From an uncultured Candidatus Saccharibacteria bacterium (GTDB taxonomy: Bacteria; Patescibacteriota; 4484-211; JAGQKX01): a stretch of 64,000 nt of DNA. The position numbers and the translations under genes are program-made. The notes beneath the pieces were generated by a model that saw only the letters and a program-made list of their open reading frames with translations, was not told the origin of the DNA and did no database searches. The DNA is taken from NCBI GenBank assembly GCA_964392315.1, contig CAYMOT010000001.1, positions 137,578 through 201,577 of the forward strand, given 5' to 3'. Within the stretch, counting starts at the first letter, position 1, and each line of letters opens with the position of its first letter. This document shows positions 13,026-39,348 of this stretch, piece by piece.

Positions 13026-15710
13026 TTAACCAATATTTGTCACCTTGCCATTTTCTGCCTGGATCTTATGCAACGTAGAAAGGCGCTGACCGAGAACACT
13101 GTCAGGGGGTAGCGTTTCGTGGTTAGACATAATGACAGTTAATTCTTCATCGTCTAGCCATTCCAGTATCAATGCCTCTGCTTCTTTGCGCAATTCACCA
13201 CTCAATTCCTTGAGTGGTTCATCGAGCAATATCGTCCTAACCCTTTGCACCCCTTGCTCACCTTGATGTTTCTTTGCAAATTCTATTTGAAACTTTATCC
13301 GCCAAAGACCCAGCAACTGTCGTTGTCCTCCCGATAAGCCAGTTTCCTGACTTCGCACAAATGTACTTACAACCCTTTCTTTTTCGAGAATCTCTGCCGC
13401 AACATGCGCCTTTGTTTCAGCGTTTAGGTCATCATAGGAAAGTTTGTAGTTATCAGGTTCATTTGCTTGATACTTTTGATACATTTCTCTAAAGCGATGT
13501 GACCCCGCCAGCACCTGGCCAGCGAGCAATCGATCCTGGTCGAATCGTAGACCTGCCAAATTTGCAGCAAGGCTACCTTCAATTGTGTCAACGGCCTGCG
13601 GTTTAATCCCTATACTTTCACGATATGCCCGTTTATCTACTTCCCCAAATCGGAAACCTCCTACAGTCATTAGTCCTCCATCAGCTCCCTCTCCGTACAA
13701 CACTTCATAAAAAGTGGACTTTCCTCCACCAGGAGAACCAACTAATTGATACTTTTCTCCTTGCTGTATATTGACTTGTTCAGCGTCAAAATATTTATTG
13801 CCCTTAGCATCAACACGTTGTATTCCAACTAATCGAATATCATTTGATGTAGGGATTTCTTTTCCTATTTGAGAATCTTGCAGCATTATTGAATTATAAA
13901 ATTCAGCAAGTGCACGAAGTTGCGGAGTCGTACGCATAATGCTCGCTCCGGTACCTACCGCGGCTTCTGCTATTTGTGCCTGGGCTGATGACTGTGCGAC
14001 TACTTCATCCAGATTAACACCCTCTATACCTAGTGCATAAAGAGTGGAATTTAACAAAAGTGCAACGCCCCTCGGCCCAACCTGTGGAAGTCTATAGTTC
14101 CTTCGCATACTTGACTCCCTTGAAGCAAGTGACCGTTCAGCATCTAGGACATCTTGAACATGTAGCGAATCTACATAACCTTCTCCTCCCGCTCCCATCA
14201 AATCTGCCCTTGTATTGTGCGTTGCAACGGTGGCAGCTTGCCTGCTGCGTTCAATTGCTGACTCTGCCTTCATCTGTAGTGCCATTGCGCCAGAATGCCA
14301 GCCCGTGTTCACAAGAATTGCAGCAAGTTGTTCACCTTCAGGAGATGACTGGGTCAGATATATTCCTGAAACGAGCGAATTTATTAATGCGGGAATAAGT
14401 TCAGCTGGAATACTTGATAGGATCTTCTGCAAACGATGGGTTTGAATTTCTAGCGCACGAGGTGAAGAACTAAAACCTGCTCTATTTATAGACACAATAT
14501 CTGGCTGTGCTTGCACTACCTGGCGGGTTACTTCGAGGACTGTCCCTTCGAACCCTTCTTTCCCTTGAGATAATTCACGTACAAGAGATTCCGTTTTATG
14601 TGCCTGAAATGTACGGGCTATATGTGCTCCCATCATTGCAGCTGCTCCACCTGCCACCAACCACGGATTTTTGGTCAGAAGTCCTTTTGGTACCAGTACC
14701 CCTGCCCCTAACTCACCTGCTGATGATGCTGCTGACAACGCAGCGATTTTTGCCAAAGAGACCTTATGGTCTCTCCCATACAATGCCAATATCTTTCGAT
14801 ACATCCCCCATGTTCCAATACCCTCCCCACCATCCATAGCCTTTTGAACTTCTTGAACAATGTTCCCAAAGTCATCTTCATACTCAGGATATTCTTTTTG
14901 CAATTGTGCTGTGATTTGCTCGGGCGTAAGTTTTGCTTCAACACCACGAGCAATTTTTTCCTGTAATAATCGTGCATTAGTTGCGTAAAGGGCTTCTCTT
15001 ATAAAATCACCGGAAGTATAAAGATCCGCCTGTTTGTCGAAATCTTCTGCGAGTTCTGTTTCGTTGTATCTCAATAATCCTGCACCCACAAGTCTCCGCT
15101 GATCTGAAAGAAGACCCCTATCCTCTTCAGTGTCTCCCCAATGCGTGGGGTTGAGAGGATCCTGACCTGTATCTATATATTCAGGCTCATCTTTTGATAA
15201 CGGATCAAAAAGACCCAGGGAATGTTTTTCGTCAAACTCTAAGTTAATATTTTGTTCGATTGCTTCTCGAAGCGTAAGTGGATTTTTACCCGGCAATCTG
15301 GGGACAAACGCATCATCTGATTCGTCTAAAGAAGTTACACTCGCAATCGCCGCATCTATGTCAAACGATTCTCCATCGTCTGCCATTTGCTGGCGAATTT
15401 TCTTGACCTGCGCAAATTCCAACACACCAGTCGCATGGTAATCAAACCTTCGCGCAGCGAGTTCAACCTCTTCTTCTGTAAACAACCGTTGCTCTCGCAC
15501 TCGTTCAGTAATTGCTTGAATCAATTCGCTCGTGGCAGCCCGGGTAAACGGTTCAAGGTCTTCACGCAATGTCCCGTATTCTTCAGACCAAACACCTTCT
15601 TCTGGAGAATTGCCTAATTTGTCCAATCTACGCCTAATAGGCTGTTCGGTTGCACCTGAGACCTTATCTTTAATATTCAAAATATCTTGCACACGTTCGC
15701 CATCCGACAT
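13026..15710 (-). CDS. Large hypothetical protein (894 aa): uncharacterised N-terminal domain of about 620 aa fused to a C-terminal ABC-type ATPase domain
   Basis: The C-terminal part carries Walker A (LVGSPGGGKST), ABC signature (LSGGQRQL), Walker B (RTILLDEPL) and an H-loop (SNHE). The N-terminal part is acidic with no recognisable motifs and only one short hydrophobic hairpin (IAALSAASSAGELGAGVLV...NPWLVAGGAAAMMGAHIA). Confidence 0.7.
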   Translation of the reverse strand: MSDGERVQDILNIKDKVSGATEQPIRRRLDKLGNSPEEGVWSEEYGTLREDLEPFTRAATSELIQAITERVREQRLFTEEEVELAARRFDYHATGVLEFAQVKKIRQQMADDGESFDIDAAIASVTSLDESDDAFVPRLPGKNPLTLREAIEQNINLEFDEKHSLGLFDPLSKDEPEYIDTGQDPLNPTHWGDTEEDRGLLSDQRRLVGAGLLRYNETELAEDFDKQADLYTSGDFIREALYATNARLLQEKIARGVEAKLTPEQITAQLQKEYPEYEDDFGNIVQEVQKAMDGGEGIGTWGMYRKILALYGRDHKVSLAKIAALSAASSAGELGAGVLVPKGLLTKNPWLVAGGAAAMMGAHIARTFQAHKTESLVRELSQGKEGFEGTVLEVTRQVVQAQPDIVSINRAGFSSSPRALEIQTHRLQKILSSIPAELIPALINSLVSGIYLTQSSPEGEQLAAILVNTGWHSGAMALQMKAESAIERSRQAATVATHNTRADLMGAGGEGYVDSLHVQDVLDAERSLASRESSMRRNYRLPQVGPRGVALLLNSTLYALGIEGVNLDEVVAQSSAQAQIAEAAVGTGASIMRTTPQLRALAEFYNSIMLQDSQIGKEIPTSNDIRLVGIQRVDAKGNKYFDAEQVNIQQGEKYQLVGSPGGGKSTFYEVLYGEGADGGLMTVGGFRFGEVDKRAYRESIGIKPQAVDTIEGSLAANLAGLRFDQDRLLAGQVLAGSHRFREMYQKYQANEPDNYKLSYDDLNAETKAHVAAEILEKERVVSTFVRSQETGLSGGQRQLLGLWRIKFQIEFAKKHQGEQGVQRVRTILLDEPLKELSGELRKEAEALILEWLDDEELTVIMSNHETLPPDSVLGQRLSTLHKIQAENGKVTNIG

Positions 15711-16611: not shown

Positions 16612-17997
16612 TTACACACTTTGGGAACCTAAACGTACAATATGTGCTGGATTCTTGTGTATATAGCCGCTTAGAATCTTATAGGTATCATATTCAAAGG
16701 TGCGTTTTTTTGAACGAACATCATCGAGATCTTCCTCACCAGCGGCCGACCCCAAATAGCACCATTTATCTAAAACATGCGCTTCGCTCATTTCAAATTC
16801 CGGGTTATATTCGCGAATTGCGACAGGGCCATCGTACGGCCATGACTTAAGGCGGTATTCACCAAATGCTACATCAAAACGCGCATTGTATTCAGCCGGT
16901 GCTTCATGCCCAGAGCACGCGCCATGACACCGCTTCAAGTGATACCCAAAACACGCCCCCCGTGTGTTCTCTAGTCCCATAAACCGATCACATAAATGAT
17001 GTTGTGCAGTTAATAACGCAATATGTTCCTTTGCTTGTTTCTTTGAGCGGTATACCCCAACAATGCGCTCTACCTCCGCAGCATCAATGCCGCTTTTCTC
17101 TTCTAGTGTAACTGTTTTATATCCATCATCCTGCAACATCTCTTTTGCCAGGATAAGCCGACGCGTCCTTCTGAGCTGCTTATTAAAAATCGGCATACGT
17201 TCTTTGATTGCCTGCGACTCTCGTATGAGCGCGCCAACCTCACCCGCGGTTATTTCGTAATCAATATCGCGGATCTCCTGCAAAAACTTGAGTGCATTCG
17301 GATCGTCTACATAAAAATGGTCTTTGACCCGTTGCCGAATATTTTTACTTTTGCCGACATACAAAAGTGTTCCGTTATCGCCATAAAAATAGTAGACACC
17401 ACTCGTTGATGGCAATTTTTCAATAATCTCAGGTGCGATATATGACGGCAACTGCGTCAACCGGATAAGCCGCTTCAAGGTCTGCTCAAAGTATTCCTGT
17501 CCAGCCTCCTGTTGGGCTATCTCAAAAAAACGCACTGTAGCTAACGTATCGTCGAGCGCACGATGCCGATCCGCACATGCAATGCCAAACCTGGAGATAA
17601 TGCTATCAAGCCCATGGCTTCTGTATTGGGGATAGAATACGCGTGACAGCTGCACGGTGCAGAGCCTACTTGGTCGAAAATCGCAGTTAAGGCGAGCGAA
17701 CTCTTTGCTCAAAAAGCCAAAGTCAAACCCTACATTATGTGCGACTAAAACAGCGTCTTCAAATCGCTCATGCACCTCGTCGGCAATCTGGGCAAAGGTA
17801 GGCGCATCGCGCAAAACCTGCGGATCAATTCCCGTCATCTCCTGTATAAATGAACCAACATATGCTTCGGGATTTACGAGCGTTTGAAACGTATCGATTA
17901 CCGTCCCATTCTCGTATCGTACAATTGCAATCTCGATGATCCGGTCATCCTTTGCACTATATCCGGTTGTTTCCACATCTACAAATGCATATACCAT
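16612..17997 (-). CDS. DnaQ-like 3'-5' exonuclease domain fused to a GIY-YIG nuclease (Cho/UvrC-N-like) domain
   Basis: The N-terminus has the DEDD exonuclease motifs FVDVETTG, HNVGFDFGFL and H...D. The central region has GIY-YIG (GVYYFYGDNGTLLYVGKSKNIRQR). A Cys-rich segment follows, as in UvrC/Cho. The architecture matches the exonuclease-Cho fusions known from mycobacteria. Confidence 0.75.
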   Translation of the reverse strand: MVYAFVDVETTGYSAKDDRIIEIAIVRYENGTVIDTFQTLVNPEAYVGSFIQEMTGIDPQVLRDAPTFAQIADEVHERFEDAVLVAHNVGFDFGFLSKEFARLNCDFRPSRLCTVQLSRVFYPQYRSHGLDSIISRFGIACADRHRALDDTLATVRFFEIAQQEAGQEYFEQTLKRLIRLTQLPSYIAPEIIEKLPSTSGVYYFYGDNGTLLYVGKSKNIRQRVKDHFYVDDPNALKFLQEIRDIDYEITAGEVGALIRESQAIKERMPIFNKQLRRTRRLILAKEMLQDDGYKTVTLEEKSGIDAAEVERIVGVYRSKKQAKEHIALLTAQHHLCDRFMGLENTRGACFGYHLKRCHGACSGHEAPAEYNARFDVAFGEYRLKSWPYDGPVAIREYNPEFEMSEAHVLDKWCYLGSAAGEEDLDDVRSKKRTFEYDTYKILSGYIHKNPAHIVRLGSQSV

Positions 17998-20380: not shown

Positions 20381-20469
20381 CTGCCCCTTCCTTTGTTCCC
20401 AATCGAAAAAACATTTGCATATTTGCTTATTTGTATTATTTTTTTATTACTTGATAGGGGGTGAGACGT

Positions 20470-21036
20470 ATGCTCTCAAATTTAGTTAAACAAACCACAG
20501 ACGCAGTGGTAAATGCAATAAACGGCGCTGATGATATTATGTCCGCGGTCCGTTCTACCGTACGTAATCAAGTTACCGGAGTCCTCGGAGATGCTGATGC
20601 GATTGCTACGGGAGGAATGGAAGCCGTGACGAGTGTTGTATCTGGTGCCGTCAAGAGCGCGGGAGAAGTCGGGGAGTCGGTCACTACTGTTGCCGTCAAC
20701 ACCGTCGGTGGTGCTATTACTGGTGTCGCTGATGTCGGTGGTGATATTATTGACGCAGTGGGCAAAACGGTACGAAGCGCTATCTCTACAACCGCTGAGG
20801 TTGGTGGGGACGTCGGTGCTGTTGCCGTGTCAGTTGTGCAAGAGGCGATTAAAACTGCTGGTGACGTTGGTGTAAATACCGCTGAAGCAACAGAAGCAGC
20901 AGTGCTCGGCGCAGTCCATGCTGCAGACGAAGTCGGCTCTGACACCGCTAACGCGGTCCGTGACGCACTCCTTGGTGCTGCCGCATTACCGCGTGATGTC
21001 GTTGAACGAGTAATTAACGGAAGTGAAAAGGAGTAA
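20470..21036 (+). CDS. Tandem-repeat protein built from about 8 copies of a 22-residue (2x11) Ala/Val/Gly-rich repeat
   Basis: AGGGGG sits 8 nt before the ATG at 20470. The protein contains units AVKSAGEVGESVTTVAVNTVGG, AITGVADVGGDIIDAVGKTVRS, AISTTAEVGGDVGAVAVSVVQE, AIKTAGDVGVNTAEATEAAVLG and AVHAADEVGSDTANAVRDALLG. These correspond to about 66-bp DNA repeats. Confidence 0.5.
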   Translation: MLSNLVKQTTDAVVNAINGADDIMSAVRSTVRNQVTGVLGDADAIATGGMEAVTSVVSGAVKSAGEVGESVTTVAVNTVGGAITGVADVGGDIIDAVGKTVRSAISTTAEVGGDVGAVAVSVVQEAIKTAGDVGVNTAEATEAAVLGAVHAADEVGSDTANAVRDALLGAAALPRDVVERVINGSEKE

Positions 21037-21066: not shown

Positions 21067-22353
21067 TTGTATGGCATCCCCATGAGCACTCTTGGTATGA
21101 ATACACTGCCACTAAGAAGTACATTTATACGCATCATCACAAATGACCTTCCTGATACCGAAGACCATGCTCTTATCCAACGCATCAAGGCACTCAATCT
21201 TGTCGGGTTCCTATTGATATGTGCGGTATTTGTTCTTGGGCTCGTTGCCTATTTTATTAAAGGAAATACTACTTTTGGCATAATGCAATTTTTGAGTGCT
21301 GGGGCTGGTCTTGTATACCTTGCAATACAGCGAAACTTGCCTTCTGCATTATCACTACACGGGGGTATTGCAACACTTATTAGTGTAATCTTCTTACTAA
21401 CACTTCCTGACGGTATCGCGAGTTCTCACACGTTTTGGCTTTACCTCGTTCCCGTGTATTCATTCTACTTAACGGGGGTACGAGGTGGTTTGTGGTGGTC
21501 AGGAGTTACTTTTGTGATCGCTGTAATTTACATGTCACTCCCGTATCTTGGTTTACATGAACAGCCAGTCGATATCCAGTTTGTCTTGGATTTCAGCCTA
21601 TCTTTCATGGTAATCATATTTTTCGCGTTTTGGTACGAGTATTCACGTACACAATACATGTCGGAGCTATCCTCAAAAAACCAAGAGCTCGAACGTCTTA
21701 TATACACCGTGTCACACGACCTCAAAACACCAGTTGTTTCCCTCCTTGGATATATCGAGTTCATTAAAGAAGAAATACAAACCGGGGACACTCAAAAACG
21801 GGATGAGGATATAAATAAGCTGCAACAAATCACGCTCAACATGCGACAAATGATCAATGACCTTCTCAATCTCAGTCGTGTCAAAAAGACTGGTGACTAT
21901 CAGAACGTATCAACCGGTGATCTTGTCGTCAAATTATTGACTGAAACTGAACCACAGATACAAGAAAAGCATATCACGGTACACATGGAAGGCAGATTTC
22001 CGACAATCCTTGCTGATCCAAGAAAACTTGAAGAGATATTTAGAAACCTTATATCAAACGCCATTAAATATATTGGCAACCCACCCGAACCCACAATCAC
22101 TGTTGGGGTGCGTGAACATAAAGACGAATACCGTTTCTTTGTTCGAGACAACGGTATTGGCATCAAAAAATCCGAACTTACCAATATCTTTAAACCGTTC
22201 TACAGCAAGTCAGATATTTCTATCGGATCGGGTATTGGTCTCTCTATTGTTAAAGGGTTTGTAGAAGATATGGCGGGCAAAGTGTGGGTAGAATCACAAG
22301 AAAATCGCGGCAGCACATTCTGGTTCTCCCTGCCTCATGGGCACAAAACCTAA
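21067..22353 (+). CDS. Sensor histidine kinase with multi-TM N-terminal sensor domain
   Basis: About 6 TM helices followed by HisKA (YTVSHDLKTPV), N-box (LISNAIKY) and G-boxes (VRDNGIGI, GSGIGLSIV). Confidence 0.8.
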   Translation: MYGIPMSTLGMNTLPLRSTFIRIITNDLPDTEDHALIQRIKALNLVGFLLICAVFVLGLVAYFIKGNTTFGIMQFLSAGAGLVYLAIQRNLPSALSLHGGIATLISVIFLLTLPDGIASSHTFWLYLVPVYSFYLTGVRGGLWWSGVTFVIAVIYMSLPYLGLHEQPVDIQFVLDFSLSFMVIIFFAFWYEYSRTQYMSELSSKNQELERLIYTVSHDLKTPVVSLLGYIEFIKEEIQTGDTQKRDEDINKLQQITLNMRQMINDLLNLSRVKKTGDYQNVSTGDLVVKLLTETEPQIQEKHITVHMEGRFPTILADPRKLEEIFRNLISNAIKYIGNPPEPTITVGVREHKDEYRFFVRDNGIGIKKSELTNIFKPFYSKSDISIGSGIGLSIVKGFVEDMAGKVWVESQENRGSTFWFSLPHGHKT

Positions 22354-22412
22354 TACTTCATATACACTTGTCGACCTAGCACACGAGCCCGTACCCTTTT
22401 ATACTTGGTGAC

Positions 22413-22766
22413 ATGAGCTTCAATGGATATAGGGCTAACATGCCGTTTGTGCCAACTGGTACTTTTTCTGGAGAGGCATTTCAAGAGAATGCGTCTGAGC
22501 ACTTCCCGCTGGACCTCAACAAAAAACTTATACAGCACCCAGTCGCTACGTACTACATGCGTGTTGGGGCTGGTAACCTGCAAAAATTCGGCGTACAGGA
22601 ACATGACATTCTTATTATTGATCGTGCTATTACGCCCAAGTTAGATTCTCTTGTCGTGTATTTTGCCGACGACATCTTTACCATTTCCCCTACACACCTC
22701 CTACCTGCTAATACTCAAACTTGGGGGGTCGTGACGTATGTGATACGCAACATGAGAAACTCCTGA
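22413..22766 (+). CDS. UmuD-like S24 peptidase-fold protein lacking the catalytic Ser/Lys dyad
   Basis: The stretch [18 protein letters not shown]...[11 protein letters not shown] aligns with the UmuD/LexA C-terminal domain. The position of the nucleophilic Ser (the GDSM motif) reads GAGNL. No HTH domain is present. Confidence 0.55.
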
Positions 22767-22773
22767 AATAACT

Positions 22774-24039
22774 ATGTTTGCGCTTATAGATTGCAACAAT
22801 TTCTTTGTCTCGTGCGAGCGCGTATTTCGGCCAGATCTGGAAGGAAAACCAGTGGGCGTTCTTTCAAATAACGACGGTTGTTTTGTTGCACGCTCAAACG
22901 AGCTTAAAGCACTCGGTGTTCCCATGGGCGCACCTGCCTTCGAATACCAGCATATTATAGAACGACACCACGTTATTACGTGTTCGGCAAACTTTCATCT
23001 TTACGCGGATATGTCACGCCGTATTATGCAAATAATCCGTGACAGTGCGCCTCATACTGAAATTTATTCAGTCGATGAGGCATTCGTTGACCTGTCTGGC
23101 GTACACACTCCTCTCATATACGCACACACACTTCGTGCGCGCATTATGCAATGGACTGGGATATCAGTGTCTGTAGGTATCGCACACACAAAGACACTTG
23201 CCAAACTTGCAAACGAATACGCAAAAAAACATTCAGACACTGACGGAGTGTCATATATTGACCTGCAACATGACGCTAAAGCTGCACAAGAAATCATGTC
23301 CTCTATTCCAGTTCAGGATGTTTGGGGTGTTGGTTGGCAATATACAAAATTTTTAAAAACGCATGGTATTAACACCGCAATTGACCTCTGTAACACAAAC
23401 GACACCTGGCTTCGCAAACAAACATCAATTTCGCTCCAACGAACCGTACTAGAATTGCGAGGAATCGCCTGCTTTAGGCTAAATGAACACCACGAGGACC
23501 AAAAAACCCTTATTTGCTCACGTACGTTTGGCGCACCAGTAGAGACACGCGCCCAGCTTATACATGCGCTTACCGGCCATGTCGAAAAAGCAGCAGAAAA
23601 GCTACGGCAACAAAATCTCGCCACAGGAACAATTCGGGTACATATTCGCACTAACCACCACAACAAGACTGATACATAATATGCTGCATCTCAGGAAGTC
23701 GACCTGCCGATCGCGACTTCCTACACACCCACACTCATCCATGCTGCAGCCCAAGCATTAAACAGAATTTATCGGCCAGGGCTGCGGTACAAGCACGCAG
23801 GCGTTTTGCTGCGTAATATATTTCCCAGTAATCAAATACAGCTGAATCTTCTTCATACTCTTCCCAATATCACCAAACAACATATGCTCATGTCTGCGCT
23901 CGATACGATTAATCAGAAGTGGGGCAGACATACTCTAGGATACGCGGGAAATTTTGTAACAGAACGCAAGTTGTACAATCGAAGATTCTGCTCTCCAGCC
24001 TACACAACATCTTGGGATGAAATACCACACGTGGGTTAA
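22774..24039 (+). pseudogene. umuC: umuC-like Y-family DNA polymerase interrupted by a single in-frame TAA at 23677-23679 (N-terminal 301 codons plus a C-terminal DUF4113-like 120 codons in the same frame)
   Basis: N-terminus [18 protein letters not shown]...[11 protein letters not shown] is the Y-family palm. After the stop, the same frame continues as YAASQEVDLPIATSYTPTLIHAAAQALNRIYRPGLRYKHAGVLL...SPAYTTSWDEIPHV, which is the UmuC C-terminus. The combined length is about 420 aa. Confidence 0.7.
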
Positions 24040-24040: not shown

Positions 24041-25288
24041 CTATTTCCGTACTAATACCACAGCATTCGGAAGAAGCCGTCCAGGACCGGCTTTGTACGC
24101 ACCACTGATATACAACGCAGTAGAACCGCCACCATCTAGATTGAGCGCATGTTTTGCCCCCAACGACTGCATTATTGCTGCCATATTTGGGACACTTGCA
24201 CCTGTTGCAACGACCAAATATACATTGGCATCATCCGTCCCTATCGCGCCACGTGTTCCTCGATTATGTTGTGCCGAATCGAGAGAGTAGTTTCCCACAT
24301 CATTCTGGCCATCTCTTACAAGCATAGGGAAATTAGAAATGCCAGCAGTAAGGGCCTGGCCCACGTATCCTTTGTTCGCGCCAGCGTAGCTAACTGAAGA
24401 TCCATTAATCGCAAGCAAGGCAAAATTATTCCATTTCAGTGCTGCTTGATTTCTCCAGCTACCCGTGTTTGTGTCATATAACGGGAATGTATACGCATAA
24501 TCCCCACTACAAGACGTATATTCTGGGGGGCAGAAGTACGTACCGTGAATACCGGCATATGCACCATTCTCAGATACATACTGAGCAAGTGTTTTTGTTG
24601 GGCATCCGTCAGTACAATCGGATGCATTTGCCGCGACAGTTTTCACTGCATACTGTGAAAGGGGTAACTTGATTACATGCGCGGAAAATGTCCCTTGATC
24701 AGTAGAAACAGATTGATACGAGTATCCAACCGCCGCGGCGACTGGAGGCCTCGTCGGAATAGGGGTAGGCGTCGGCAAGGTGGCCAAATACTGCTGATAC
24801 TGAGAATTTAACGTATCCTGTGCAGATGAGATGCTCTCAACCAATGGATCAAACTCCTGCTTTAGAAACTGCTCTCCCCATTGGGGCAGTTGGTTTTTGA
24901 CGCCTCCTACATCAAGGCCACGGGCGGAGTTTCGGTCAATTAATTCCACCGTTTCTTGATAGAGCGCATATACGGATTCAATTTTCTGAAGTCGTTCTCC
25001 CTGGGCATCTTGCTTGAATTTCTCGTATTCTTCAGTTATCAGGTCTTTTGAGTTTTGAAGCGCCAGCAGATCCAAGAAGCGATAGTGGTCTTGCTCGAGG
25101 AGAGTGTCATATGCCTCCTGTAGGGTAGCACGATCTTCGGTGAATGAGGTAAAGTCACTTCGCAGTGAACCAAACTCTTGCTCTATGCCGTACACGCGAT
25201 ACATACCATACGTAATCAGCCCAGAGAATACACATCCTACGAGTAACAAGAAAAAACCTGCTTTGCGTGAAGTATGCATAGCATCCAT
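24041..25288 (-). CDS. Membrane-anchored phosphodiester glycosidase (NAGPA-like, DUF2233) family protein
   Basis: N-terminal TM helix, a coiled-coil-like region, a PTPTPIPTRPP linker, and a C-terminal domain ending in NLDGGGSTALY. Confidence 0.5.
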   Translation of the reverse strand: MDAMHTSRKAGFFLLLVGCVFSGLITYGMYRVYGIEQEFGSLRSDFTSFTEDRATLQEAYDTLLEQDHYRFLDLLALQNSKDLITEEYEKFKQDAQGERLQKIESVYALYQETVELIDRNSARGLDVGGVKNQLPQWGEQFLKQEFDPLVESISSAQDTLNSQYQQYLATLPTPTPIPTRPPVAAAVGYSYQSVSTDQGTFSAHVIKLPLSQYAVKTVAANASDCTDGCPTKTLAQYVSENGAYAGIHGTYFCPPEYTSCSGDYAYTFPLYDTNTGSWRNQAALKWNNFALLAINGSSVSYAGANKGYVGQALTAGISNFPMLVRDGQNDVGNYSLDSAQHNRGTRGAIGTDDANVYLVVATGASVPNMAAIMQSLGAKHALNLDGGGSTALYISGAYKAGPGRLLPNAVVLVRK

Positions 25289-30343: not shown

Positions 30344-31117
30344 ATGACGTATCTTGACGCAATAATATTGGGGGTAATACAAGGTGTTACTGAGTTTATT
30401 CCTGTAAGCAGCGATGGCCATTTAGCATTGGCAGAAAATCTAGGACTTGTCGGTGATGTCCCCTTCTTTTTTACCGTAAGCGTCCACTTAGGAACGCTTA
30501 TCGCTACGGTGTTCTTTTTTCGGAATATAATCCTCGATCTTATCAGGCGATTATTTCAGAAAGATACCACCGCCTTCTCTTTTTTGTTTGCACTTGGAGT
30601 CGGAACAATTCCTGCTGGTATCGCCGGGATACTTTTGAACGACTCGATCGATCAGCTGAGTACATCCCTGGCCGTTACAGGTTTTGGTTTTTTATTGTCT
30701 ATGTGTTGGTTACTCGGTATTTACCGAGTGCCTGCTCGTGAAAAGAAACAAACTGCATCCCTGAAAGATGCTGCCATTATTGGGCTTTTACAGGCAACGG
30801 CGTTACTTCCTGGTGCCTCGCGGTCGGGCGCTACGCTGTTTGGTGGAAAGCTGCGAGGGCTCTCTTCAGAAGACGCATTTACCTTCTCGTTTTTGTTATC
30901 GATACCGGCAATTCTTGGAGCCTTAGCATTGCAACTCCTTAACGCTCAGGTGAGCGCTGTACCTCAAAGTATTGTGGGGGGTGTAATGTCAACAATTGTA
31001 GGCATTGGGGCACTCACATTTCTCAAAAAAGTAGTTGTTTCAAACAAACTCTATGTATTAGCCGTATACTGTGGGATCCTGGGCGTTGTATCCTTACTGC
31101 TCGCTTATTCGAGGTAA
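30344..31117 (+). CDS. uppP: Undecaprenyl-diphosphatase
   Basis: The N-terminus [21 protein letters not shown] and the PGxSRSG motif ([10 protein letters not shown]) are diagnostic for UppP/BacA. Confidence 0.85.
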
Positions 31118-32226
31118 TCCTTCAGTTTGCGAGCTCGGGTTGGGTGCTTTAGTTTCCGTAGCGCCTTTGCCTCTATTTGTCGAATCCGTTCTCGAGTCAC
31201 GCCAAAAAACTTTCCTACTTCTTCAAGCGTTCTATTTCTCCCATCTTCTAGGCCATATCGTAGTTCAAGCACTTTCTTTTCACGAGGGGATAGTGTGTCA
31301 AGCACCTCACGCATATGTTCCTTGAGCAATTCAGAAGATGCTGCTTCGTCCGGCTTTGCAACCACTTCGTCTTCTATAAAGTCCCCCAATCGCGATTCTT
31401 CATCATCGCCAACCTTCTTCTCAAGAGAAATAGGTTCCTGCGCTATTTTAATAATTTCACGTGCTCTGTCAGAAGGAATGCCCATTTCTTTGGCGACTTC
31501 TTCGGGCGAAGGTGGACGCCCAAGGTCCTGTGCCATCCGACGGCTAATCCTAATAAACTTATTGATCGTCTCAACCATGTGTACCGGAATACGGATGGTA
31601 CGTGCCTGATCTGCGATAGCTCTGGTTATTGCTTGACGAATCCACCACGTTGCATATGTAGAAAATTTGAACCCTCGACGCCAGTCATATTTCTTCACTG
31701 CCTTCATAAGTCCGGTGTTTCCTTCTTGTATCAAATCGAGCATGTCCAAACCGCGTCCAAGATACTTCTTTGCTACCGACACAACAAGCCGTAGGTTAGA
31801 ACGTATCAAAATTTTTACTGCTTCTTGATCACCCTGCTCTACGCGCTTTGCGAGCGAAACTTCCTCCTCATGTGTTAGGAGTGGCACTTGGCCTATTTCG
31901 GATAGATACATTCGTGCGGGGTCAGAAGGGGATTTACTTGTACGGCGGGTAATCTTTTCAATCTTCTCTTGTAGGTCACGTTCTATGCTTTTTTCTGCCT
32001 TTTCGACCGTTTCTCCTGAAGATACGTCCAAGACCTCAATATTATGTTCTAACAGGGTATTATACAAACTATCAAGCTGCTCAATATTTTCTTCGGCAGT
32101 GGGGAATATCTCTATGATAGAATCAAGCGTAATATACCCCTGTTTCTTGCCTTTCCGAATAAGTTTTTTGATGTTGAGTGCCTCTGCGCGTGATGTCATA
32201 ACAGTATCCCCTGTATTGTACAACAA
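31105..32226 (-). CDS. rpoD: RNA polymerase sigma factor RpoD (sigma-70)
   Basis: Region 2.4, 3 and 4 motifs [27 protein letters not shown] and [20 protein letters not shown]. The true start may be the internal M (MTSRAE...) 27 nt downstream of the ORF start. Confidence 0.9.
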
Positions 32227-34032
32227 CTACTGGATTATCTTCATTTCTCTGAGTTGTCGCGTATGCATACGGATCTCTTCATGAATCTGCTGAATCTCCT
32301 CTGACCCCTCAGGCAATTGTTCTTTAATACGTGTCAGTTCCTTAATCCTTCTTCTAAAGTATGATTCCTCTAAATGAGACAACGTTTGCACGAGTTCATG
32401 CGCTGCAGACGAATCGTCTCTAAGCACATCACCAAAATCATACATGATGATCTTGTGCATACGTTCCTGCAAATCTTCTGGTAAAGATTGTATACTACTT
32501 GTCAACGAATCTGGACTTTTCCGCAGTGCATCCTGGATATGTTCAAAAATTGCCCGCAGATCTGGTTGGGTAAATACGTCTGGATGTGCTGTTGAGAGGC
32601 TATTTTGTATCTCTGTTTTTTTTAACACTTCATCCGACACATTCCCTAATAGGGCAATCATGTATTCCTCAATCCGTTCTTGGCGTGAGACCGGTTTTTC
32701 AAAGTTGGGAAGAGAGGTACTAGTTGCAGTAATGTTGGCAGAAGTGGCCTGTTGTGATTGCTTCCACAAAGTAAAGTCTTTCAACAGGGCAGTTAACGGC
32801 ACTGAGAGTTCACGCGAGAGCATTTCTAAGTACTGGTTCTGTACTACACTGTCAGACAGTGCATGCACAAATTCAAACACGTGTTCTGCGACTTTTTTTG
32901 CGTCATACGCAGAACTACCTGGGTGTAACTGCCGGGCACGCTTCAAAAAATAATCGAATGCACTCATAGCATGTACAAGATCGTTCCGAAACGCACTCGG
33001 ATCTTTTCTCACTGCCTCATCTGGATCCTTGCCATGAGTCAACTGCACAATTTTTATTTCAAACCCCTCAGACGCAGCCTCACGCGCTGCTCGCTCACTT
33101 GCCATCCTTCCAGCCTCATCCATATCAAATACCACCATAATACGTGTACAAATGCGTTTAAGGAGCTTCAGCTGCTCAACAGTGAGACCGGTACCAAGCG
33201 GAGCTACCACTTGTGTAAGCCCATTCTGATGCAACGAAATAACATCCACATTACCCTCCACGAGTACTGCATATCCTTTTTTCTGGATTACCTCTTGCGC
33301 TTTATCGTATCCATAGAGCAAGCTACCTTTCTTAAAGAGTATAGTTTCAGGGGTGTTTATGTACTTCGCCTGCTCGTCTTTTTTGAGCGTTCTCCCACTA
33401 AATCCCACAACCCGCCCCATATGGTCCGATACCGGAAACATCACCCTATCCCGAAATCGATCATACATCCCGATTCGTGATCGGTTCGAAGGGACAGCAA
33501 GGCCTGAATCTATAATCTCAACTTGAGCATAGCCCTTCTTAAGAAAATAGGTGCACCCTGCATCCCACGAATCTAATGCATATCCTAGGCCGAAAGCTTG
33601 TACGCTCGTAGACGAAACTTCGCGTGACTGAAGATACTCATACGCAATGCGACCTTCCTGCTTTTGCACATTTGCCTGGAAATAATCTGCTGCGTCTGCG
33701 AGAAGCCGCAATAAACGTTCTTTCTTTTGTCCTCTTGCGGGATCGCTCGTTTTTTGTAAAGTTATTCCTGCTCGTCTCGCCAAAAGTTCTAAAGCCTCAC
33801 CAAACGAAAGGTTCTCTTTTTCCATCACAAAACTGTACACATCTCCTCCTCGCTGACACCCAAAACAATAGTACATACCTTTGTCCGGACGTACAAAAAA
33901 TGAGGGGGTTTTCTCAGCGTGAAAGGGACATATACCTTTGAAGTTTTTGCCTGTTTGGGTGAGTTTTGTGTACTGACGAATAGTTTCAACAATATCGATC
34001 TTCTCCCGCACATTCTCGACGTCGTCTTGCAT
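32227..34032 (-). CDS. dnaG: DNA primase
   Basis: CHC2 zinc finger CPFHAEKTPSFFV...YYCFGC and a Toprim domain (EGNVDVISL...DMDEAG). The stop abuts the rpoD start, which is the classic dnaG-rpoD operon arrangement. Confidence 0.9.
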   Translation of the reverse strand: MQDDVENVREKIDIVETIRQYTKLTQTGKNFKGICPFHAEKTPSFFVRPDKGMYYCFGCQRGGDVYSFVMEKENLSFGEALELLARRAGITLQKTSDPARGQKKERLLRLLADAADYFQANVQKQEGRIAYEYLQSREVSSTSVQAFGLGYALDSWDAGCTYFLKKGYAQVEIIDSGLAVPSNRSRIGMYDRFRDRVMFPVSDHMGRVVGFSGRTLKKDEQAKYINTPETILFKKGSLLYGYDKAQEVIQKKGYAVLVEGNVDVISLHQNGLTQVVAPLGTGLTVEQLKLLKRICTRIMVVFDMDEAGRMASERAAREAASEGFEIKIVQLTHGKDPDEAVRKDPSAFRNDLVHAMSAFDYFLKRARQLHPGSSAYDAKKVAEHVFEFVHALSDSVVQNQYLEMLSRELSVPLTALLKDFTLWKQSQQATSANITATSTSLPNFEKPVSRQERIEEYMIALLGNVSDEVLKKTEIQNSLSTAHPDVFTQPDLRAIFEHIQDALRKSPDSLTSSIQSLPEDLQERMHKIIMYDFGDVLRDDSSAAHELVQTLSHLEESYFRRRIKELTRIKEQLPEGSEEIQQIHEEIRMHTRQLREMKIIQ

Positions 34033-34054
34033 GGGTGTATTGTAACATCCAGTT

Positions 34055-34738
34055 TTAATACGGGTCAGGATACCACTTGGCGTATCGCACCTTCTTGAGT
34101 TCGACCGTTGAGTCGGTTATGGTTAAATAACTTCCGTAGCCATTTTTGATATCTCCCAATACAATGAGTCCATTTTTGCGTTCATCACGCGCCATATGGA
34201 CGTGTCCAAATACAAAGAGTTTTCCTTTCTCATAATTGCTCTTTGCAAACTCTCTGAATATGAGCCATCCGTGCAACTTGTCGGGGAAAAAGTATTTTGA
34301 ATAATATCCGAAGAGTTTGTAACCCAATGACTCCGCTTTACTATAGAGATACTCAACAAAATTCATTTTACGCGTATGCCGTTTACGATCCACATACGGA
34401 TCAAGACGATGACCATGTTCAATATAGAATGTAAGCCCATTACTCAGCAGTATATGATTGTCTTTTTGTTCTATTGAAAATTGTGCGGTTTTTTCGTTAC
34501 AGGCTGCTTTTGCATCATGATTGCCATAAATATAAATAGCATTTCTTTCGAGGAGCAACGGAAAAAGGGTATTCCATCCTGAGACCAAAAATTCATCAAT
34601 CGTACAGTGATCACTATCCCAGAAATCTCCGTTAATAATAACTTGGTCTGCGTTCTTAATTATCGATTCTAGGAAGACATACTTTTTTTCTTCCATCTTG
34701 GGGGTAAGGTGCGTATCAGAGAAAATGACTGTCTTCAC
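34055..34738 (-). CDS. Calcineurin-like metallophosphoesterase
   Basis: Motifs DxH (FSDTHL), GDFWD and GNHD. The ORF-track N-terminus (up to 34879) runs antisense through tRNA-Ser and is rejected. The start is uncertain; a GTG at 34738 is proposed. Confidence 0.55.
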   Translation of the reverse strand: MKTVIFSDTHLTPKMEEKKYVFLESIIKNADQVIINGDFWDSDHCTIDEFLVSGWNTLFPLLLERNAIYIYGNHDAKAACNEKTAQFSIEQKDNHILLSNGLTFYIEHGHRLDPYVDRKRHTRKMNFVEYLYSKAESLGYKLFGYYSKYFFPDKLHGWLIFREFAKSNYEKGKLFVFGHVHMARDERKNGLIVLGDIKNGYGSYLTITDSTVELKKVRYAKWYPDPY

Positions 34739-34790
34739 AAGTCTAGTGTACCACGCTACATCAACGAATGTGCTACAATCGGGGAGATCT

Positions 34791-34878
34791 GGAGGGATGC
34801 GGGAGTGGCCTATCCGGCTCGCTTGGAAAGCGACGCGCTCGCAAGGGCACGAGGGTTCGAATCCCTCTCCCTCCGCCA
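34791..34878 (+). tRNA. tRNA-Ser (anticodon GGA), type II with long variable arm
   Basis: 88 nt with acceptor GGAGGGA/TCCCTCC. The D-arm contains GAGTGGC. The anticodon loop TTGGAAA gives anticodon GGA. There is a long variable arm, a T arm GAGGG-TTCGAAT-CCCTC, and an encoded CCA. Confidence 0.8.
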
Positions 34879-34888
34879 ATAAACTTGA

Positions 34889-36025
34889 TTATCCCAGCAT
34901 CTTTTCCCACCATTTCTTCGGGTGTTTTTCGAGTTGTAGGAGGCCAGTGAGGTGCTCTTTTTGTTCTTTTGAGAGCTTGGTGGGTGTCTCAACTCGTACC
35001 GTGACAACTTGATCTCCGTTTCGATGAGCGCGCGGACTTTCTATTCCTTTCCCTTTGAGGACTATCTCTTCACCAGACTGAATGCCTGGCTTGATAGTTA
35101 CCGTTTCTTCGCCATGTATTGTAGGCACGGTAATCGTATCACCCAGCGCTGCTTGAGCAAACGATATTGGCAGCGTGATATGGATATCATTGTCTCTTCG
35201 TACGAAGAATTTATGCTGCTGCACCTTAAATCGGATGTATAAATCTCCTGCGCCTCCACCACGCTCACCAGCACTACCGCGTCCGGAAAAGCGCAAACGG
35301 GTTCCTGTATCTACACCCGCAGGTACTGTAAATGTAAACTGCTCTTCGGTCTGAATCCGGCCGTTCCCTCTACAATTAGTACACTTATCTTTAACCACTT
35401 CACCTGTACCCTGACAGGTAGGACACGCAGTTACCGTACTAAACATAGCACCAAACACACTTTGTTGTGACCGAACTTGCCCTTGTCCACCACAAGTAGT
35501 ACAGGTCGCCGGCTTAGTCCCTTCTTTTGCACCACTGCCATCACAAACCGTACACGTAACATATCGTGAATACCGCAGCGTCTTTTCGGCACCATGTACT
35601 GCTTCATCAAAAGTAAGCTCCACCCGCGCCTCAAGGTCTGTTCCTCGTCTTCGTGAAGTCTGGGTATTAGTCCGGAAGCCGCCTCCGAAGAATTGTTCAA
35701 AAATATCAAATGGATCGGAAAATCCACCGAATCCGGCATTTCCAAACCCAGCGTATGCATTGCCAAATCCGCCAAACCCTCCTTGTCCAGCACCGGAAGC
35801 GGGGTCGAACGCCGCATGTCCGAATCGATCGTATGCTGCCCGTTTTTCCTCATCAGATAATACTTGGTATGCTTCACCAACCTCTTTAAACTTTGCCTCT
35901 GCATGAGGTTCTTTGTTTAGATCTGGATGGTATTGCTTGGCAAGTTTTTTGTATGCCTTCTTTATTTCGTCTGGTGATGCACCTTTCGATACACCAAGAA
36001 TGTCATAATAATCTTGCTTTGCCAT
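34889..36025 (-). CDS. dnaJ: Chaperone DnaJ
   Basis: J domain with HPD (YYDILGV...HPD), a G/F region, and four CxxCxGxG zinc-finger repeats. Confidence 0.9.
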
Positions 36026-36129
36026 AATAAAAAAAGGAGCCTTCAGGAGCCGCTGAGCACAACTCCGAAACTCCTTTGATCATGAACCTATTTATTCTAC
36101 GTCACCTACACTTCTCTATTCGTTCGGGC

Positions 36130-38025
36130 TTATTTCTCATTATTCTCTTTCTCATCCACTACCTCCCCCTCAACTGGCTCCGTCCCATCAGTTGTCTGAC
36201 TTTCCTCCCCAGGGGCGGCCGCACTAGACTCGGATTGCTTGTATAGTTCTGACCCAATCTTTTGGATTGTCTCACTTAATTCATTCATCCCTTTTTCTAT
36301 TTCTTCAGTACTTTCACCCTTTAGCACGGTTTGCAACGCGTCTAGTTTCTCTTGTACTTGATCTTTGATTGACTGATCGACTTTATCTCCGGCATCCTTG
36401 AGGGCCTTTTCGGCAGTATATACGAGCGTTTCCGCACGATTTCGAACCTCTATTGCCTCTTTCTTCTTTTCATCCTCAGCCTTGTGTGCCTCTGCCTCCT
36501 GGCGCATTTTTTCAATTTCGTCCTTATTGAGTCCCGTTGAATCGGTAATGGTGATCTTTTGCTCGGTGCCGGTTGCCTTGTCTTTCGCTGAAACATGCAG
36601 GATACCATTCGCATCAATATCAAATGTTACCTCTACCTGGGGAATACCTCGTGGCGCGGGGGGAATACCAGACAATATGAATTTACCGAGCGTCTTGTTG
36701 TCAGGCGCCATAGGCCGTTCTCCTTGCAAGACATGAATTTCTACCGACGTCTGATTGTCTGCCGCAGTTGAAAATATTTGGCTTTTTGAGGTAGGTATGG
36801 TGGTATTACGCTCTATAAGTGGAGTCATAACACTTCCTAATGTCTCGATTCCCAATGTCAACGGTGTTACGTCCAGCAACAACACGTCCTTTACTTCTCC
36901 GCCTAACACCCCAGCCTGTATCGCTGCGCCGATCGCGACCACTTCATCCGGATTAACACCTTTGTTGGGCTCTTTACCGAAGTACTCTTTTACCGCCTCT
37001 TGTACGCGTGGCATGCGCGTCTGTCCTCCTACAAGAATAACCTCGTGGATGTCTTCTTTTTTCACACCTGCATCTTTTATTGCCTGGTCAACGGATTTGA
37101 ATGTTCGAGCCACGAGTTCTTCGGTCAACGATTCTAGTTTTGCACGAGTAATTCGTACTTGTAGGTGTTTTGGCCCTGATTGATCAGCGGTGATGAATGG
37201 AATATTAACCTCTGTTTCCTGTTTGCTGGAGAGCTCAATCTTTGCCTTCTCAGAAGCATCACGAAGCCGTTGCAGTGCCTGTTTGTCCTTCATCAAATCA
37301 ATTGCCTGTTCTTTTTTGAATTCAGCAACGAGATGTTCAATAAGGACATTATCAAAATCATCTCCCCCAAGGTGTGTGTCTCCTGCAGTTGACTTAACCT
37401 CAAAAACCCCATCGCCCACCTCAAGAATCGAAATGTCAAACGTTCCACCACCCAAGTCATACACCGCGATAAGTTCATTATCTTTTTTATCGAGCCCATA
37501 CGCCAACGACGCTGCGGTAGGTTCGTTGATAATACGCTTTACCTCAAACCCTGCGATTTCTCCTGCTTGCTTCGTTGCCTGGCGCTGCGAGTCGTCAAAG
37601 TAAGCCGGCACGGTAATAACTGCAGCATGCACTTTCTCCCCGAGGTAACTCTCCGCGTCTGCTTTCAGCTTTGCAAGAATCTTTGCAGAGATTTCCTGTG
37701 GTGTATATTTTTTACCCTCGACCTCCACAACCGCCATGTCATCCTTACCTCCAGCTATTTCATACGACACATACTCTTTAGCACGCTTTACTTCGGGATC
37801 TTTTTCTTTAAGTCCCATGATTCGCTTAATACTTTGGATGGTCTTTTGTGGCGCTACCACTAATTGACGCTTGGCAGGCTCACCAACAATATTGTCTATC
37901 ACGTCGACGACGCTAGGTATCGTATTGCGCCCCTCTGCTGACGGGATAACTTTGGGTTGGCCACCCTCCATTACCGCAACGACTGAATTAGTTGTTCCGA
38001 GGTCGATTCCGACTATTTTTGACAT
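36130..38025 (-). CDS. dnaK: Chaperone DnaK (Hsp70)
   Basis: [18 protein letters not shown], and [17 protein letters not shown]. Confidence 0.95.
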
Positions 38026-38062
38026 AATTTCAAGTTAAACACCAAATACTACTATGTGCTGT

Positions 38063-38449
38063 TTATTTTTTAACCTTTACTCTCCCATGACGCACGATCT
38101 TTTCATGTAGTTTGTACGCATGAGAGTATACGGTGTCAACCGTCTCACCCTCACCGTCGATAGCTTCCATAAGATTAGCGTCAAATCTTGTACCTTCAGT
38201 AATTTCCACTTTCTCAAAACCTTCTTGTGCCAATAAATCACTAAATTGCTTCATAACCATCTCAAACCCTTCAAGCACACTCAAAATTTTCATGAGTAGC
38301 ACTTGGTTAGAGAATTTTATGACATCCTGCTTCTCTTTTTCAAAACGTTTTTGTAAATTCTGATAATCAGCCAGTGCTCTCTTAAGCTGATCACTCAAAT
38401 CTCCCTGCCCACTTTGGTTTTGGTCGTGTGCATCCTTTTTATGCGTCAT
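38063..38449 (-). CDS. grpE: Nucleotide exchange factor GrpE (short form)
   Basis: 128 aa with a GrpE-like coiled coil (ALADYQNLQKRFEKEKQD) and a C-terminal beta domain. It sits between hrcA and dnaK. Confidence 0.7.
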   Translation of the reverse strand: MTHKKDAHDQNQSGQGDLSDQLKRALADYQNLQKRFEKEKQDVIKFSNQVLLMKILSVLEGFEMVMKQFSDLLAQEGFEKVEITEGTRFDANLMEAIDGEGETVDTVYSHAYKLHEKIVRHGRVKVKK

Positions 38450-38458
38450 ATAGTATCG

Positions 38459-39187
38459 TTACCAAGATCGGGTCATTTGATCCAAAATCCGCTTGAAGTA
38501 CCGAACGAGCGGCATAATACGTGCGTAATTCAAGCGCATTGGACCTAACACCCCTAGCTGGGCCATCTGCCCATTGGGAAGGGAAAATCGTGCATAAATC
38601 AAACCACATTGCGAAAGCCCTGTGATCCCCATTTCATCTGCGAGCAACACCCCAACCTCTTGCTCAGGCACTGCATTCTCAAATATAGACAACAACACCT
38701 CAGCGCGATCGAGCATGTGCAATACACTGCGCGTAAGATCTATATTGTAAAACTCAGGGTGGCGCAGAACGTGTACACTTCCCGCATGATATACCCGCCC
38801 ATCCGTCGTCACTACAATAGCAAGGTTTTGTGCCTCATCTGCAAGCGCGGTGACCATCTGACGAAGCATTCTATCGACATCATGCCGCTGTTCCCAAACC
38901 CGCTGCTTGATTGTAACCTCCGCGACGACCGGGATTTCCTGCTCTTCCATCAGCTGTTTTATATACAGACGATAGGCGAGCGGACCGGGAATACGTCCTG
39001 CAGATATATGCTCTTTTACAAGGTACCCAAGCTCTACCAAATCAGCCATCTCATTACGCAATGTGGCTGGAGACACGTGTAGATCATACTTTGAAGCAAG
39101 GGTTTCTGACCCTACTGCTTCTGCTGTCTCGGTATATTCCCGCACAATTGCCTTGAGAATTTGTAACTGGCGATCAGTAAGATCCAT
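38459..39187 (-). CDS. hrcA: Heat-inducible transcription repressor HrcA (short form)
   Basis: N-terminal winged helix LTDRQLQILKAIVREYTETAEAVGSETLA. It is the first gene of the hrcA-grpE-dnaK-dnaJ cluster. Confidence 0.7.
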   Translation of the reverse strand: MDLTDRQLQILKAIVREYTETAEAVGSETLASKYDLHVSPATLRNEMADLVELGYLVKEHISAGRIPGPLAYRLYIKQLMEEQEIPVVAEVTIKQRVWEQRHDVDRMLRQMVTALADEAQNLAIVVTTDGRVYHAGSVHVLRHPEFYNIDLTRSVLHMLDRAEVLLSIFENAVPEQEVGVLLADEMGITGLSQCGLIYARFSLPNGQMAQLGVLGPMRLNYARIMPLVRYFKRILDQMTRSW

Positions 39188-39319
39188 ATTATCAACCGAT
39201 ATAACACATCTGCCAAACCAATGTCAACGGGTAGGGCACATAAGCAATTTTATGGCTACACAAAAGGTTAAAGAGCACTACCTACCAACCCACCAATACA
39301 TAGCACTCGATTAAAGGTA

Positions 39320-39348
39320 TTGACAAAGACAGACCTAATTTATATCAT
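39320..39348 (+). promoter_or_regulatory. Candidate sigma-70-type promoter for hsp20 (TTGACA, about 17 nt, TATCAT)
   Basis: TTGACA at 39320-39325 and TATCAT about 17 nt downstream, roughly 125 nt before the hsp20 ATG. Confidence 0.3.

Follow-up and report, generated by a model that had tools for sequence, protein, structure and literature searches.

The 64,000-nucleotide window analyzed here (positions 137,578 to 201,577 of the forward strand of contig CAYMOT010000001.1) contains, between positions 22413 and 24039, two adjoining + strand genes arranged as in the umuDC operon for Escherichia coli DNA polymerase V (Pol V, UmuD′2C–RecA), with a small S24-fold gene followed by that of a Y-family polymerase. 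The first gene (22413–22766, +) encodes a 117-residue UmuD-like protein that has the S24/UmuD′ fold without its Ser/Lys catalytic dyad. The second, after a gap of 7 bp, is of the umuC type, and its frame is interrupted by a premature stop codon. The pair is preceded by a gene for a MASE6 histidine kinase (21067–22353) and followed by a convergent NAGPA-family gene (24041–25288, −).

Translation of 22774–24039 (+) yields 421 sense codons in one frame with a single internal stop at 23677–23679 (…HNKTDT*YAASQEVDLP), and Pfam recognizes complementary portions of one polymerase on its two sides. The 301-residue 5′ part matches IMS (127 bits), IMS_HHH, and profile positions 2–55 of IMS_C, and the 119-residue 3′ part matches IMS_C positions 59–109 and DUF4113 (56 bits). 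Because the IMS_C match is split across the TAA at profile positions 55/59, the break must lie inside the little-finger domain of one continuous UmuC. These results bear out the original prediction, made from the DNA sequence of this region, of a umuC gene divided by one in-frame TAA and followed in the same frame by a DUF4113-like C-terminal tail. The order IMS, IMS_HHH, IMS_C, DUF4113 is complete across the two fragments, and the same domains are present in an intact protein from a sister population (P0001). Among the NCBIfam models, UmuC (NF002955) gives by far the best match; the intact sister scores 390 bits on it and the 301-residue fragment 303, both below the cut-off of 431, and DinB models score no higher than 157 bits on the umuC product.

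Codons 1–301 (22774–23676, +) encode, according to Pfam and alignment with E. coli UmuC, the palm, the fingers, the thumb, and the first half of the little finger. This part also holds the catalytic residues: Asp6 is found in LIDCNNFF (22783–22806, +), which aligns with LCDVNA of E. coli, and Asp101 and Glu102 are found in SVDEAF (23068–23085, +), which aligns with SIDEAF. The premature TAA occupies codon 302 (23677–23679, +) in the context TAAT. Beyond it lies an untranslated remnant of umuC comprising codons 303–421 and the normal TAA (23680–24039, +), which holds the second half of the little finger. Alignment locates in this remnant a β-clamp-type motif, QIQLNLL (23833–23853, +), a RecA-NT/DUF4113 region that Pfam also detects (23881–23949, +), and a predicted UmuD′-binding C-tail, SPAYTTSWDEIPHVG (23992–24036, +), the roles of all three being taken from earlier work (PMC6511836, PMC11791011). 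The clamp motif, the RecA-NT motif, and the C-tail are thus all 3′ of the TAA, and no uninterrupted frame covering them exists in the window. C-terminal truncations of UmuC abolish UmuD′ binding and mutagenesis (summarized in PMC11791011), and by analogy with what is established for UmuC, a product ending at residue 301 is almost certainly inactive.

The nearest relative of the window is a sister population represented in several SRR268680xx runs, which has the same neighboring genes and is ∼94% identical in nucleotide sequence across umuC. In this population codon 302 is CAA (Gln) and umuC encodes an intact protein of 421 residues. Among the aligned loci, CAA is present in L001–L004, and TAA in the window, L005, and L006. 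Gln302 is found in 8 of 8 protein variants of the 95%-identical sister cluster, all of them intact at 421 residues, and Gln also occupies the position in more distant umuC relatives (P0003–P0006, 58–62% identical). E. coli and a WWE3 homologue have Tyr there, and the original prediction had noted that the TAA is one substitution from a Tyr codon. A Tyr ancestry is ruled out by Gln in the sister variants and in the clade relatives, from which it follows that the stop arose from CAA by a single C-to-T transition; the change of C to T that gives TAA is directly visible in the sequences.

Two contigs from the Logan assemblies, one from run ERR2586216 and one from run ERR2586217, match the window at 100% identity along 8.2 and 8.7 kb, the TAA included, and the 301-residue UmuC fragment is on record in both the 435-kb NCBI contig and the Logan assemblies. 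Since the Logan contigs come from separate runs and a different assembler, their identity to the window rules out an assembler artefact and leaves a sequencing error in the consensus very unlikely. An error of sequencing or assembly that conceals an intact umuC, one of the explanations first offered for the stop, could appeal to the single base that separates TAA from a sense codon and to the fact that assembled sequence, not reads, was compared. Such an error would, however, have to recur at the same base across the NCBI contig and both Logan assemblies, and a collection of 15 billion proteins contains no intact protein of the window's own haplotype, all 421-residue members of the cluster differing from it at 18–21 residues. 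We therefore regard an error as scarcely credible. A search for the same stop in related populations, which had been suggested as a check, found intact genes in the relatives and the TAA only in the Logan assemblies of the same population.

Several observations indicate that the stop is young. In the codons after it, the window and the sister differ by 20 synonymous and 5 nonsynonymous changes, for a ratio of nonsynonymous to synonymous divergence (dN/dS) of 0.066; in the same comparison dN/dS is 0.127 for umuC before the stop and 0.035–0.069 for two neighboring genes. The probability of 5 or fewer nonsynonymous changes among these 25 post-stop differences is 5e-9 under neutrality. Neutral evolution along the whole window branch would be expected to have left ∼27–38 nonsynonymous changes after the stop, against a 95% upper limit of 10.5 for the 5 observed. 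This deficit implies that the stop is younger than roughly one third of the time since the split from the sister, and on the sequence divergence it is probably much younger than that. When amino acid changes were polarized with outgroups, 4 proved to be derived in the window and 2 in the sister, and 13 were ambiguous. A recent nonsense mutation had been among the origins envisaged for the stop, and it is the one that agrees both with the intact, Gln302-bearing relatives and with the low post-stop dN/dS.

A further suggestion had been regulated read-through. In this explanation the stop is tolerated or even used, either because low-level near-cognate read-through of UAA (with insertion of Gln, Tyr, or Lys) attenuates a mutagenic polymerase, or because the two parts act as a split enzyme. 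The frame and the downstream codons of umuC are perfectly kept, as this explanation would have it, but the same is equally expected of any very young mutation, and all relatives have a sense codon at the position. TAA is moreover the commonest terminator in the window, the context TAAT also closes 8 other open reading frames (ORFs), and tRNA and Rfam scans of the window revealed no suppressor tRNA and no known RNA element. For a split enzyme in particular, the first in-frame start 3′ of the stop is a TTG 42 codons downstream, and the break falls inside a folded domain. We give either form of use a slim chance. General recoding of TAA, which the original prediction had already judged unlikely, is ruled out, as TAA ends 32 of the 51 ORFs in the window and TGA is also a true stop; the umuD-like gene of the window ends with TGA where those of its sisters end with TAA. 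Termination in the window had been described as being by TAA or TGA, and both are indeed used (TGA in 6 ORFs), although TAG closes another 13. That all three codons end ORFs in the window indicates a standard code in the host.

The small protein encoded upstream of umuC was examined by profile and structure comparison. A profile of its clade searched against the PDB matches UmuD′ and UmuD (1umu/1i4v/1ay9/8gmt) with E ∼4e-11 and LexA with 2e-4. The AlphaFold2 model has a mean predicted local distance difference test score (pLDDT) of 81.6, with values of 84–97 in the core (residues 33–117), and residues 1–30 are predicted to be disordered. Its best Foldseek match is E. coli UmuD′ (1ay9; template modeling score 0.67/0.72, root-mean-square deviation 2.5 Å). 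E. coli UmuD′ is thus the best match in structure as well as in sequence, in keeping with the earlier alignment of this S24-fold protein to UmuD. The protein nevertheless falls short of the cut-offs of Pfam PF00717 (15.7 vs 23.3 bits) and of the NCBIfam model for the autoproteolytic subunit, NF007621 (58.3 vs 110 bits), on which the nearest canonical UmuD homologue (P0125) scores 166 bits. The YolD/YqjX family (PF08863) gives no match to it at E values up to 1.

Alignments by MAFFT and with a hidden Markov model (HMM) place Asn55 (22575–22577, +; GAGNL vs SGDSM) at the position of UmuD Ser60, and Ser92 (22686–22688, +; FTISP vs FTVKK), or a gap, at that of Lys97. The absence of the catalytic Ser and Lys, asserted at the outset, is therefore upheld, and the HMM alignment finds neither residue at the UmuD dyad positions in any clade member. 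Approximately 20 residues of the UmuD β-hairpin are also deleted. The invariant Ser19-Gly20 aligns with Cys24-Gly25 of UmuD and is followed by EAF, in contrast to FPSP in UmuD. To judge from these aligned residues, the protein cannot cleave itself by the known mechanism. Public gene calls begin at the second ATG (22440) and give a protein of 108 residues; the nine residues before this second Met are kept in frame in all lineages. Pfam detects no DNA-binding domain in the 117-residue protein, which does not conform to the LexA or phage-repressor type. The original prediction had counted a helix-turn-helix motif among the missing parts, but UmuD proteins are not known to have one, so that its absence here is not a loss.

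The same dyad-less, hairpin-less protein is present in every clade member examined, which comprise the sister (95% identical) and L007, L097, L094, and L093 (49–55%), all obtained by exact look-ups. An intact umuC of 420–431 residues lies directly 3′ of the dyad-less gene in L002, L007, L093, L094, and L097, and the clade shares a neighborhood made up of a Cho-like exonuclease, a VTT protein, two histidine kinases, and the umuD-like and umuC genes. In the umuD-like gene, the window and the sister differ by 31 synonymous and 5 nonsynonymous changes, a dN/dS of 0.034, and the value for L093 against L094 is 0.145; in deeper pairs synonymous sites are saturated, and dN is 0.19–0.47. Conservation of the protein is highest in its N-terminal arm, where the motif MPFxPTGTxSGExF does not vary within the clade. 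Among the matches listed for the species representatives of GTDB, the UmuD-like protein of this clade is absent, the GTDB and metagenome scans having returned canonical or distant UmuDs.

A WWE3 genome (GCA_020429905.1; L102:1862-2257) has the same gene order of MASE6 kinase, umuD, umuC, and NAGPA, and its UmuD is canonical, with 131 residues, the motifs AAGFPSP, GDSM, and FTVKRL, and the full hairpin. A canonical UmuD at the orthologous locus indicates that the dyad was lost once, in an ancestor of the window's clade, and that the derived form has been maintained since. Purifying selection, together with a dyad-less state in all lineages of the clade, likewise marks this state as old and maintained, and not as decay.

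A second nonsense allele occurs in the operon of another sister population, SRR32830374/5 (L100:3001-3285, L101:2038-2322), where Trp104 of the umuD-like gene has changed from TGG to TGA. Trp104, encoded at 22722–22724 in the window, is otherwise invariant. The stop removes the invariant C-terminal strand WGVVTYVI, and the umuC alongside is intact at 421 residues. Counted with the umuC stop of the window, and read from these sequences, this gives close relatives two recent loss-of-function mutations in the same operon, each of independent origin. The original prediction had described the entire locus as decaying, with the missing dyad and the umuC stop both taken as signs of pseudogenization. 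In part this stands, as the umuC stop is genuine, the W104 stop arose independently, the UmuD-like protein is under the Pfam and NCBIfam cut-offs, and the two stops partly favor a loss of the locus at the tips of the tree (umuC in the window, the umuD-like gene in L100 and L101). The reason given for it does not stand: the umuD-like gene is maintained (dN/dS 0.034–0.145), the post-stop codons of umuC have a dN/dS of 0.066, the dyad-less state is common to all clade lineages, each with an intact umuC, and both the arm and an element upstream of the operon are invariant. Decay of the whole locus is therefore very unlikely.

The two nonsense alleles also admit a less conventional interpretation, in which the post-translational safety catch has been lost and leaky nonsense codons throttle the polymerase in its stead, the alleles being attenuating rather than dead. 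Both stops are situated where near-cognate read-through would restore the wild type, with UAA replacing a Gln codon in umuC and UGA replacing a Trp codon in the umuD-like gene, and the position of the sister's UGA would also suit read-through as such, since Trp would be restored. But those two codons have no one-step route to nonsense other than CAA to TAA and TGG to TGA, and we hold leaky-codon throttling to be highly doubtful.

The element upstream of the operon is a conserved block, ATACACTTGTCGACCTAG (22362–22379, +), identified as a candidate operator/promoter element in an alignment of six lineages. The pattern A.ACA.TTGTCG..CTAG is invariant in these lineages, whose proteins are only ∼50% identical, and the remaining intergenic DNA has diverged. 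The WWE3 relative has AGACATTTGTCT at the equivalent upstream position. The block occurs once in the window, without recurrence, and matches none of the LexA motifs compared with it as SOS boxes. Its conservation suggests a putative protein-binding site. Farther 3′, a −10-like hexamer, TATACT (22400–22405, +), lies 7 nt 5′ of the ATG at 22413; it is invariant in all six aligned lineages, in each of which the ATG lies 6–7 nt 3′ of it. A sigma-70 consensus scan upstream of the umuD-like gene found no standard −35/−10 pair. The arrangement suggests a leaderless mRNA that would start at 22413 and encode the 117-residue form. Neither lexA nor recA was found among the window ORFs scanned. In L093, a 337-bp insert upstream of the operon (L093:7664-8000) carries two copies of a CTTTGACCTTTAC-type repeat, and a run of AACTGAY short tandem repeats (L093:8325-8398) separates the umuD-like gene from umuC.

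Homologues of UmuD without the dyad also occur outside this clade. We scored the dyad with an HMM built from canonical UmuDs, in a GTDB and metagenome sample of UmuD sequences taken by one conserved motif. Six of the best 80 homologues among the GTDB species representatives lack the dyad, and four of these six are encoded directly 5′ of umuC (in an unclassified metagenome-assembled genome [MAG], a Saccharibacteria MAG, and two Ignavibacteria MAGs). On metagenome contigs the dyad is missing from 5 of the best 80, all 5 with umuC 3–545 bp downstream. Taken together, umuC adjoins 9 of the 11 dyad-less homologues, which make up ∼6–8% of the UmuD homologues sampled. Examples that are both dyad-less and adjacent to umuC are L015, L018, L068, and L072 from GTDB and L125, L151, L157, and L161 from metagenomes; several of them are hairpin-less, at 92–115 residues. 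When the clade profile was searched against 1.84 billion representative proteins, the clade itself gave the one match at E <1e-30, and 289 matches were obtained at E <1e-10. Among the 154 best representative matches, 106 are without the dyad, mostly hairpin-less, a proportion that is raised by the bias of the query toward dyad-less sequences; the median length within these 154 is 114 residues for dyad-less proteins and 149.5 residues for those with the dyad. The contig of one dyad-less representative, P0132, ends at the gene. We found no published description of dyad-less UmuD partners in the searchable literature, an absence that is no proof of novelty.

The DnaK encoded in the window is ∼70% identical to named DnaKs from Katanobacteria/WWE3, Daviesbacteria, Microgenomates, Woykebacteria, and Levybacteria, and by this comparison the host is an uncultivated Patescibacteria (CPR, candidate phyla radiation) bacterium related to WWE3/Microgenomates. 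Housekeeping genes at 31105–43656 (rpoD, dnaG, dnaJ, dnaK, hrcA, hsp20, and groEL, with a class I Trp/Tyr-type tRNA synthetase also among them) point to a chromosomal setting and not to a mobile element. The only tRNA genes in the window are those for tRNA-Asn and tRNA-Ser, and Rfam gave no further matches.

Several other genes of the window were noted in passing. A DEDD (RNase_T) exonuclease fused to a GIY-YIG/Cho-type excinuclease (16612–17997, −) is kept near the umuDC-like operon in all relatives. A 191-residue repetitive protein rich in Gly, Ala, Val, and Asp (20461–21036, +) has no Pfam match; all relatives have a gene for a counterpart of 187–188 residues at the same position. An 893-residue ABC protein (13026–15710) was considered as a UvrA paralogue and rejected, as it matches transporter-type ABC models only. 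At 54634–57329 (−), the phosphoglycerate kinase ORF is short, with 336 residues in two separate Pfam stretches, and a 156-residue ORF without Pfam match lies between it and the GAPDH gene; the arrangement could reflect either a disrupted gene or a variant specific to the lineage.

We consider it likely that the locus is a Pol V-type operon with an anciently non-cleaving, maintained accessory subunit, in which umuC has recently been knocked out by one C-to-T change. Two steps would account for it. In the older, in the ancestor of the clade, the Ser/Lys dyad, the arm's GFPSP motif, and the β-hairpin would have disappeared from the accessory subunit, which kept the core fold of UmuD′, an N-terminal arm that is strongly conserved, and its place beside umuC. 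The conservation of this converted UmuD is evident from the comparisons above; as to its function, the protein would most likely still be the small subunit that binds UmuC, and self-cleavage triggered by RecA* would cease to be a requirement for activation. Control might then be exerted through transcription, by way of the conserved upstream element, and through the binding of RecA to UmuC. In the more recent step, in the sampled population, a single C-to-T transition turned the CAA of Gln302 into TAA and left a truncated UmuC from which half of the little finger is missing, together with the clamp motif, the motif that binds RecA, and the tail that binds UmuD. With these parts lost the polymerase is almost certainly inactive, and umuC is best described as a newborn pseudogene or a loss-of-function allele.

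A number of points weigh against this interpretation. Regarding the recent step, the two Logan contigs are evidently from the same population as the window, and probably from the same samples, and do not represent an independent strain; as the evidence consists of assembled sequences, a minority intact umuC allele may also exist in that population. Regarding the older step, binding and activation of UmuC by the dyad-less protein are predictions from sequence, the arm is modeled at pLDDT <50, and some function that has nothing to do with UmuC could account for the purifying selection. The two nonsense alleles in close relatives point to weak selection on the operon at present. Finally, non-cleavable E. 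coli UmuD does not support mutagenesis, and the window protein still has 19 residues before the Ser-Gly aligned with the cleavage site, so that the protein could be inhibitory and not activating.

This last point leads to the alternative that the dyad-less protein acts on UmuC as a permanent brake or a regulator, in the manner of uncleaved E. coli UmuD2, and not as an activating subunit. The ∼19 residues before the cleavage-site-aligned Ser-Gly are kept and could not be self-removed, it is established that non-cleavable E. coli UmuD blocks mutagenesis, and the gene shows tight linkage to umuC and is conserved together with it. Over such divergence, however, a polymerase under permanent inhibition would not be expected to stay intact. 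In addition, the arm is wholly changed from GFPSP and yet invariant in the clade, which suggests co-adaptation with UmuC, and the other non-proteolytic small subunits, YqjX and YolD, are thought to act positively (PMC6511836, PMC12926913). On balance a permanent brake is unlikely, and we retain the activating, non-cleaving subunit as the preferred interpretation of the older step.

Comparison with characterized systems helps to define what is unusual about the locus. The checkpoint held to define Pol V is the self-cleavage of UmuD triggered by RecA*. The umuC product shares with E. coli UmuC the IMS, IMS_C, and DUF4113 domains, the catalytic Asp and Glu residues, the clamp-type motif, the RecA-NT region, and the C-tail. 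It differs in that its gene is cut at codon 302, and the small protein differs from E. coli UmuD in lacking Ser60 and Lys97, the GFPSP arm motif, and the β-hairpin, whereas self-cleavage is the activation step that defines the E. coli enzyme. A second comparison is with HumD of phage P1, reportedly the subject of a 1999 study by McLenigan and colleagues. HumD is likewise a UmuD′-type accessory protein; it is naturally 'pre-cleaved', needs no RecA*-mediated processing, and complements UmuD′ according to the P1 record. It starts at the N-terminus of UmuD′ (MGFPSPAADY), retains by alignment both the Ser (ADSH) and the Lys (RIKRY), and has no adjoining umuC. By contrast, the window protein has an N-terminal extension, lacks both catalytic residues and GFPSP, and is operonic with umuC; it scores 38.5 on the NCBIfam HumD model, against a cut-off of 120.

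Small partners without proteolytic activity are known from Bacillus subtilis, in which YqjX and YolD are encoded beside the UmuC-like polymerases YqjW and UvrX and have an SH3-like β core and an N-terminal arm that, by prediction, inserts into the polymerase (PMC6511836, PMC12926913). Their family (PF08863) is a different one, whereas the window protein is a true UmuD homologue that, given its canonical WWE3 orthologue, is secondarily non-proteolytic. UmuDAb of Acinetobacter is a UmuD homologue with a changed role in the damage response (PMC4807011, PMC11332147); it is larger, has an extended, DNA-binding N-terminal domain, and still self-cleaves, in contrast to the window protein, which is smaller than UmuD and has neither DNA-binding domain nor dyad. 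Interruption or truncation of a UmuC-type gene within a recognizable operon has precedents in B. subtilis, where yozK-yobH is a disrupted umuC-type gene (PMC6511836), and in Acinetobacter baylyi ADP1, which has a truncated umuDC (Hare et al., 2006, as cited in PMC8565304). The lesion in the window is different from both in being a single datable transition, with no further decay, that is polymorphic between close populations.

The stop itself is an ordinary event, a datable strain-level loss of a translesion polymerase, and the presence of two independent nonsense alleles suggests that the operon is readily lost in natural populations. The more useful result is a true UmuD orthologue without the dyad that is under purifying selection beside umuC across deep divergence; of the partners that had already been described, YolD/YqjX are non-homologous and HumD is pre-truncated. 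If confirmed, these proteins would provide a natural series in which to ask what role the UmuD core plays once cleavage is gone, and would flag annotation pipelines that name such proteins "autoproteolytic subunit" or hypothetical. A protease-dead yet conserved UmuD would thus be a modest, testable addition to what is known of bacterial mutasomes.

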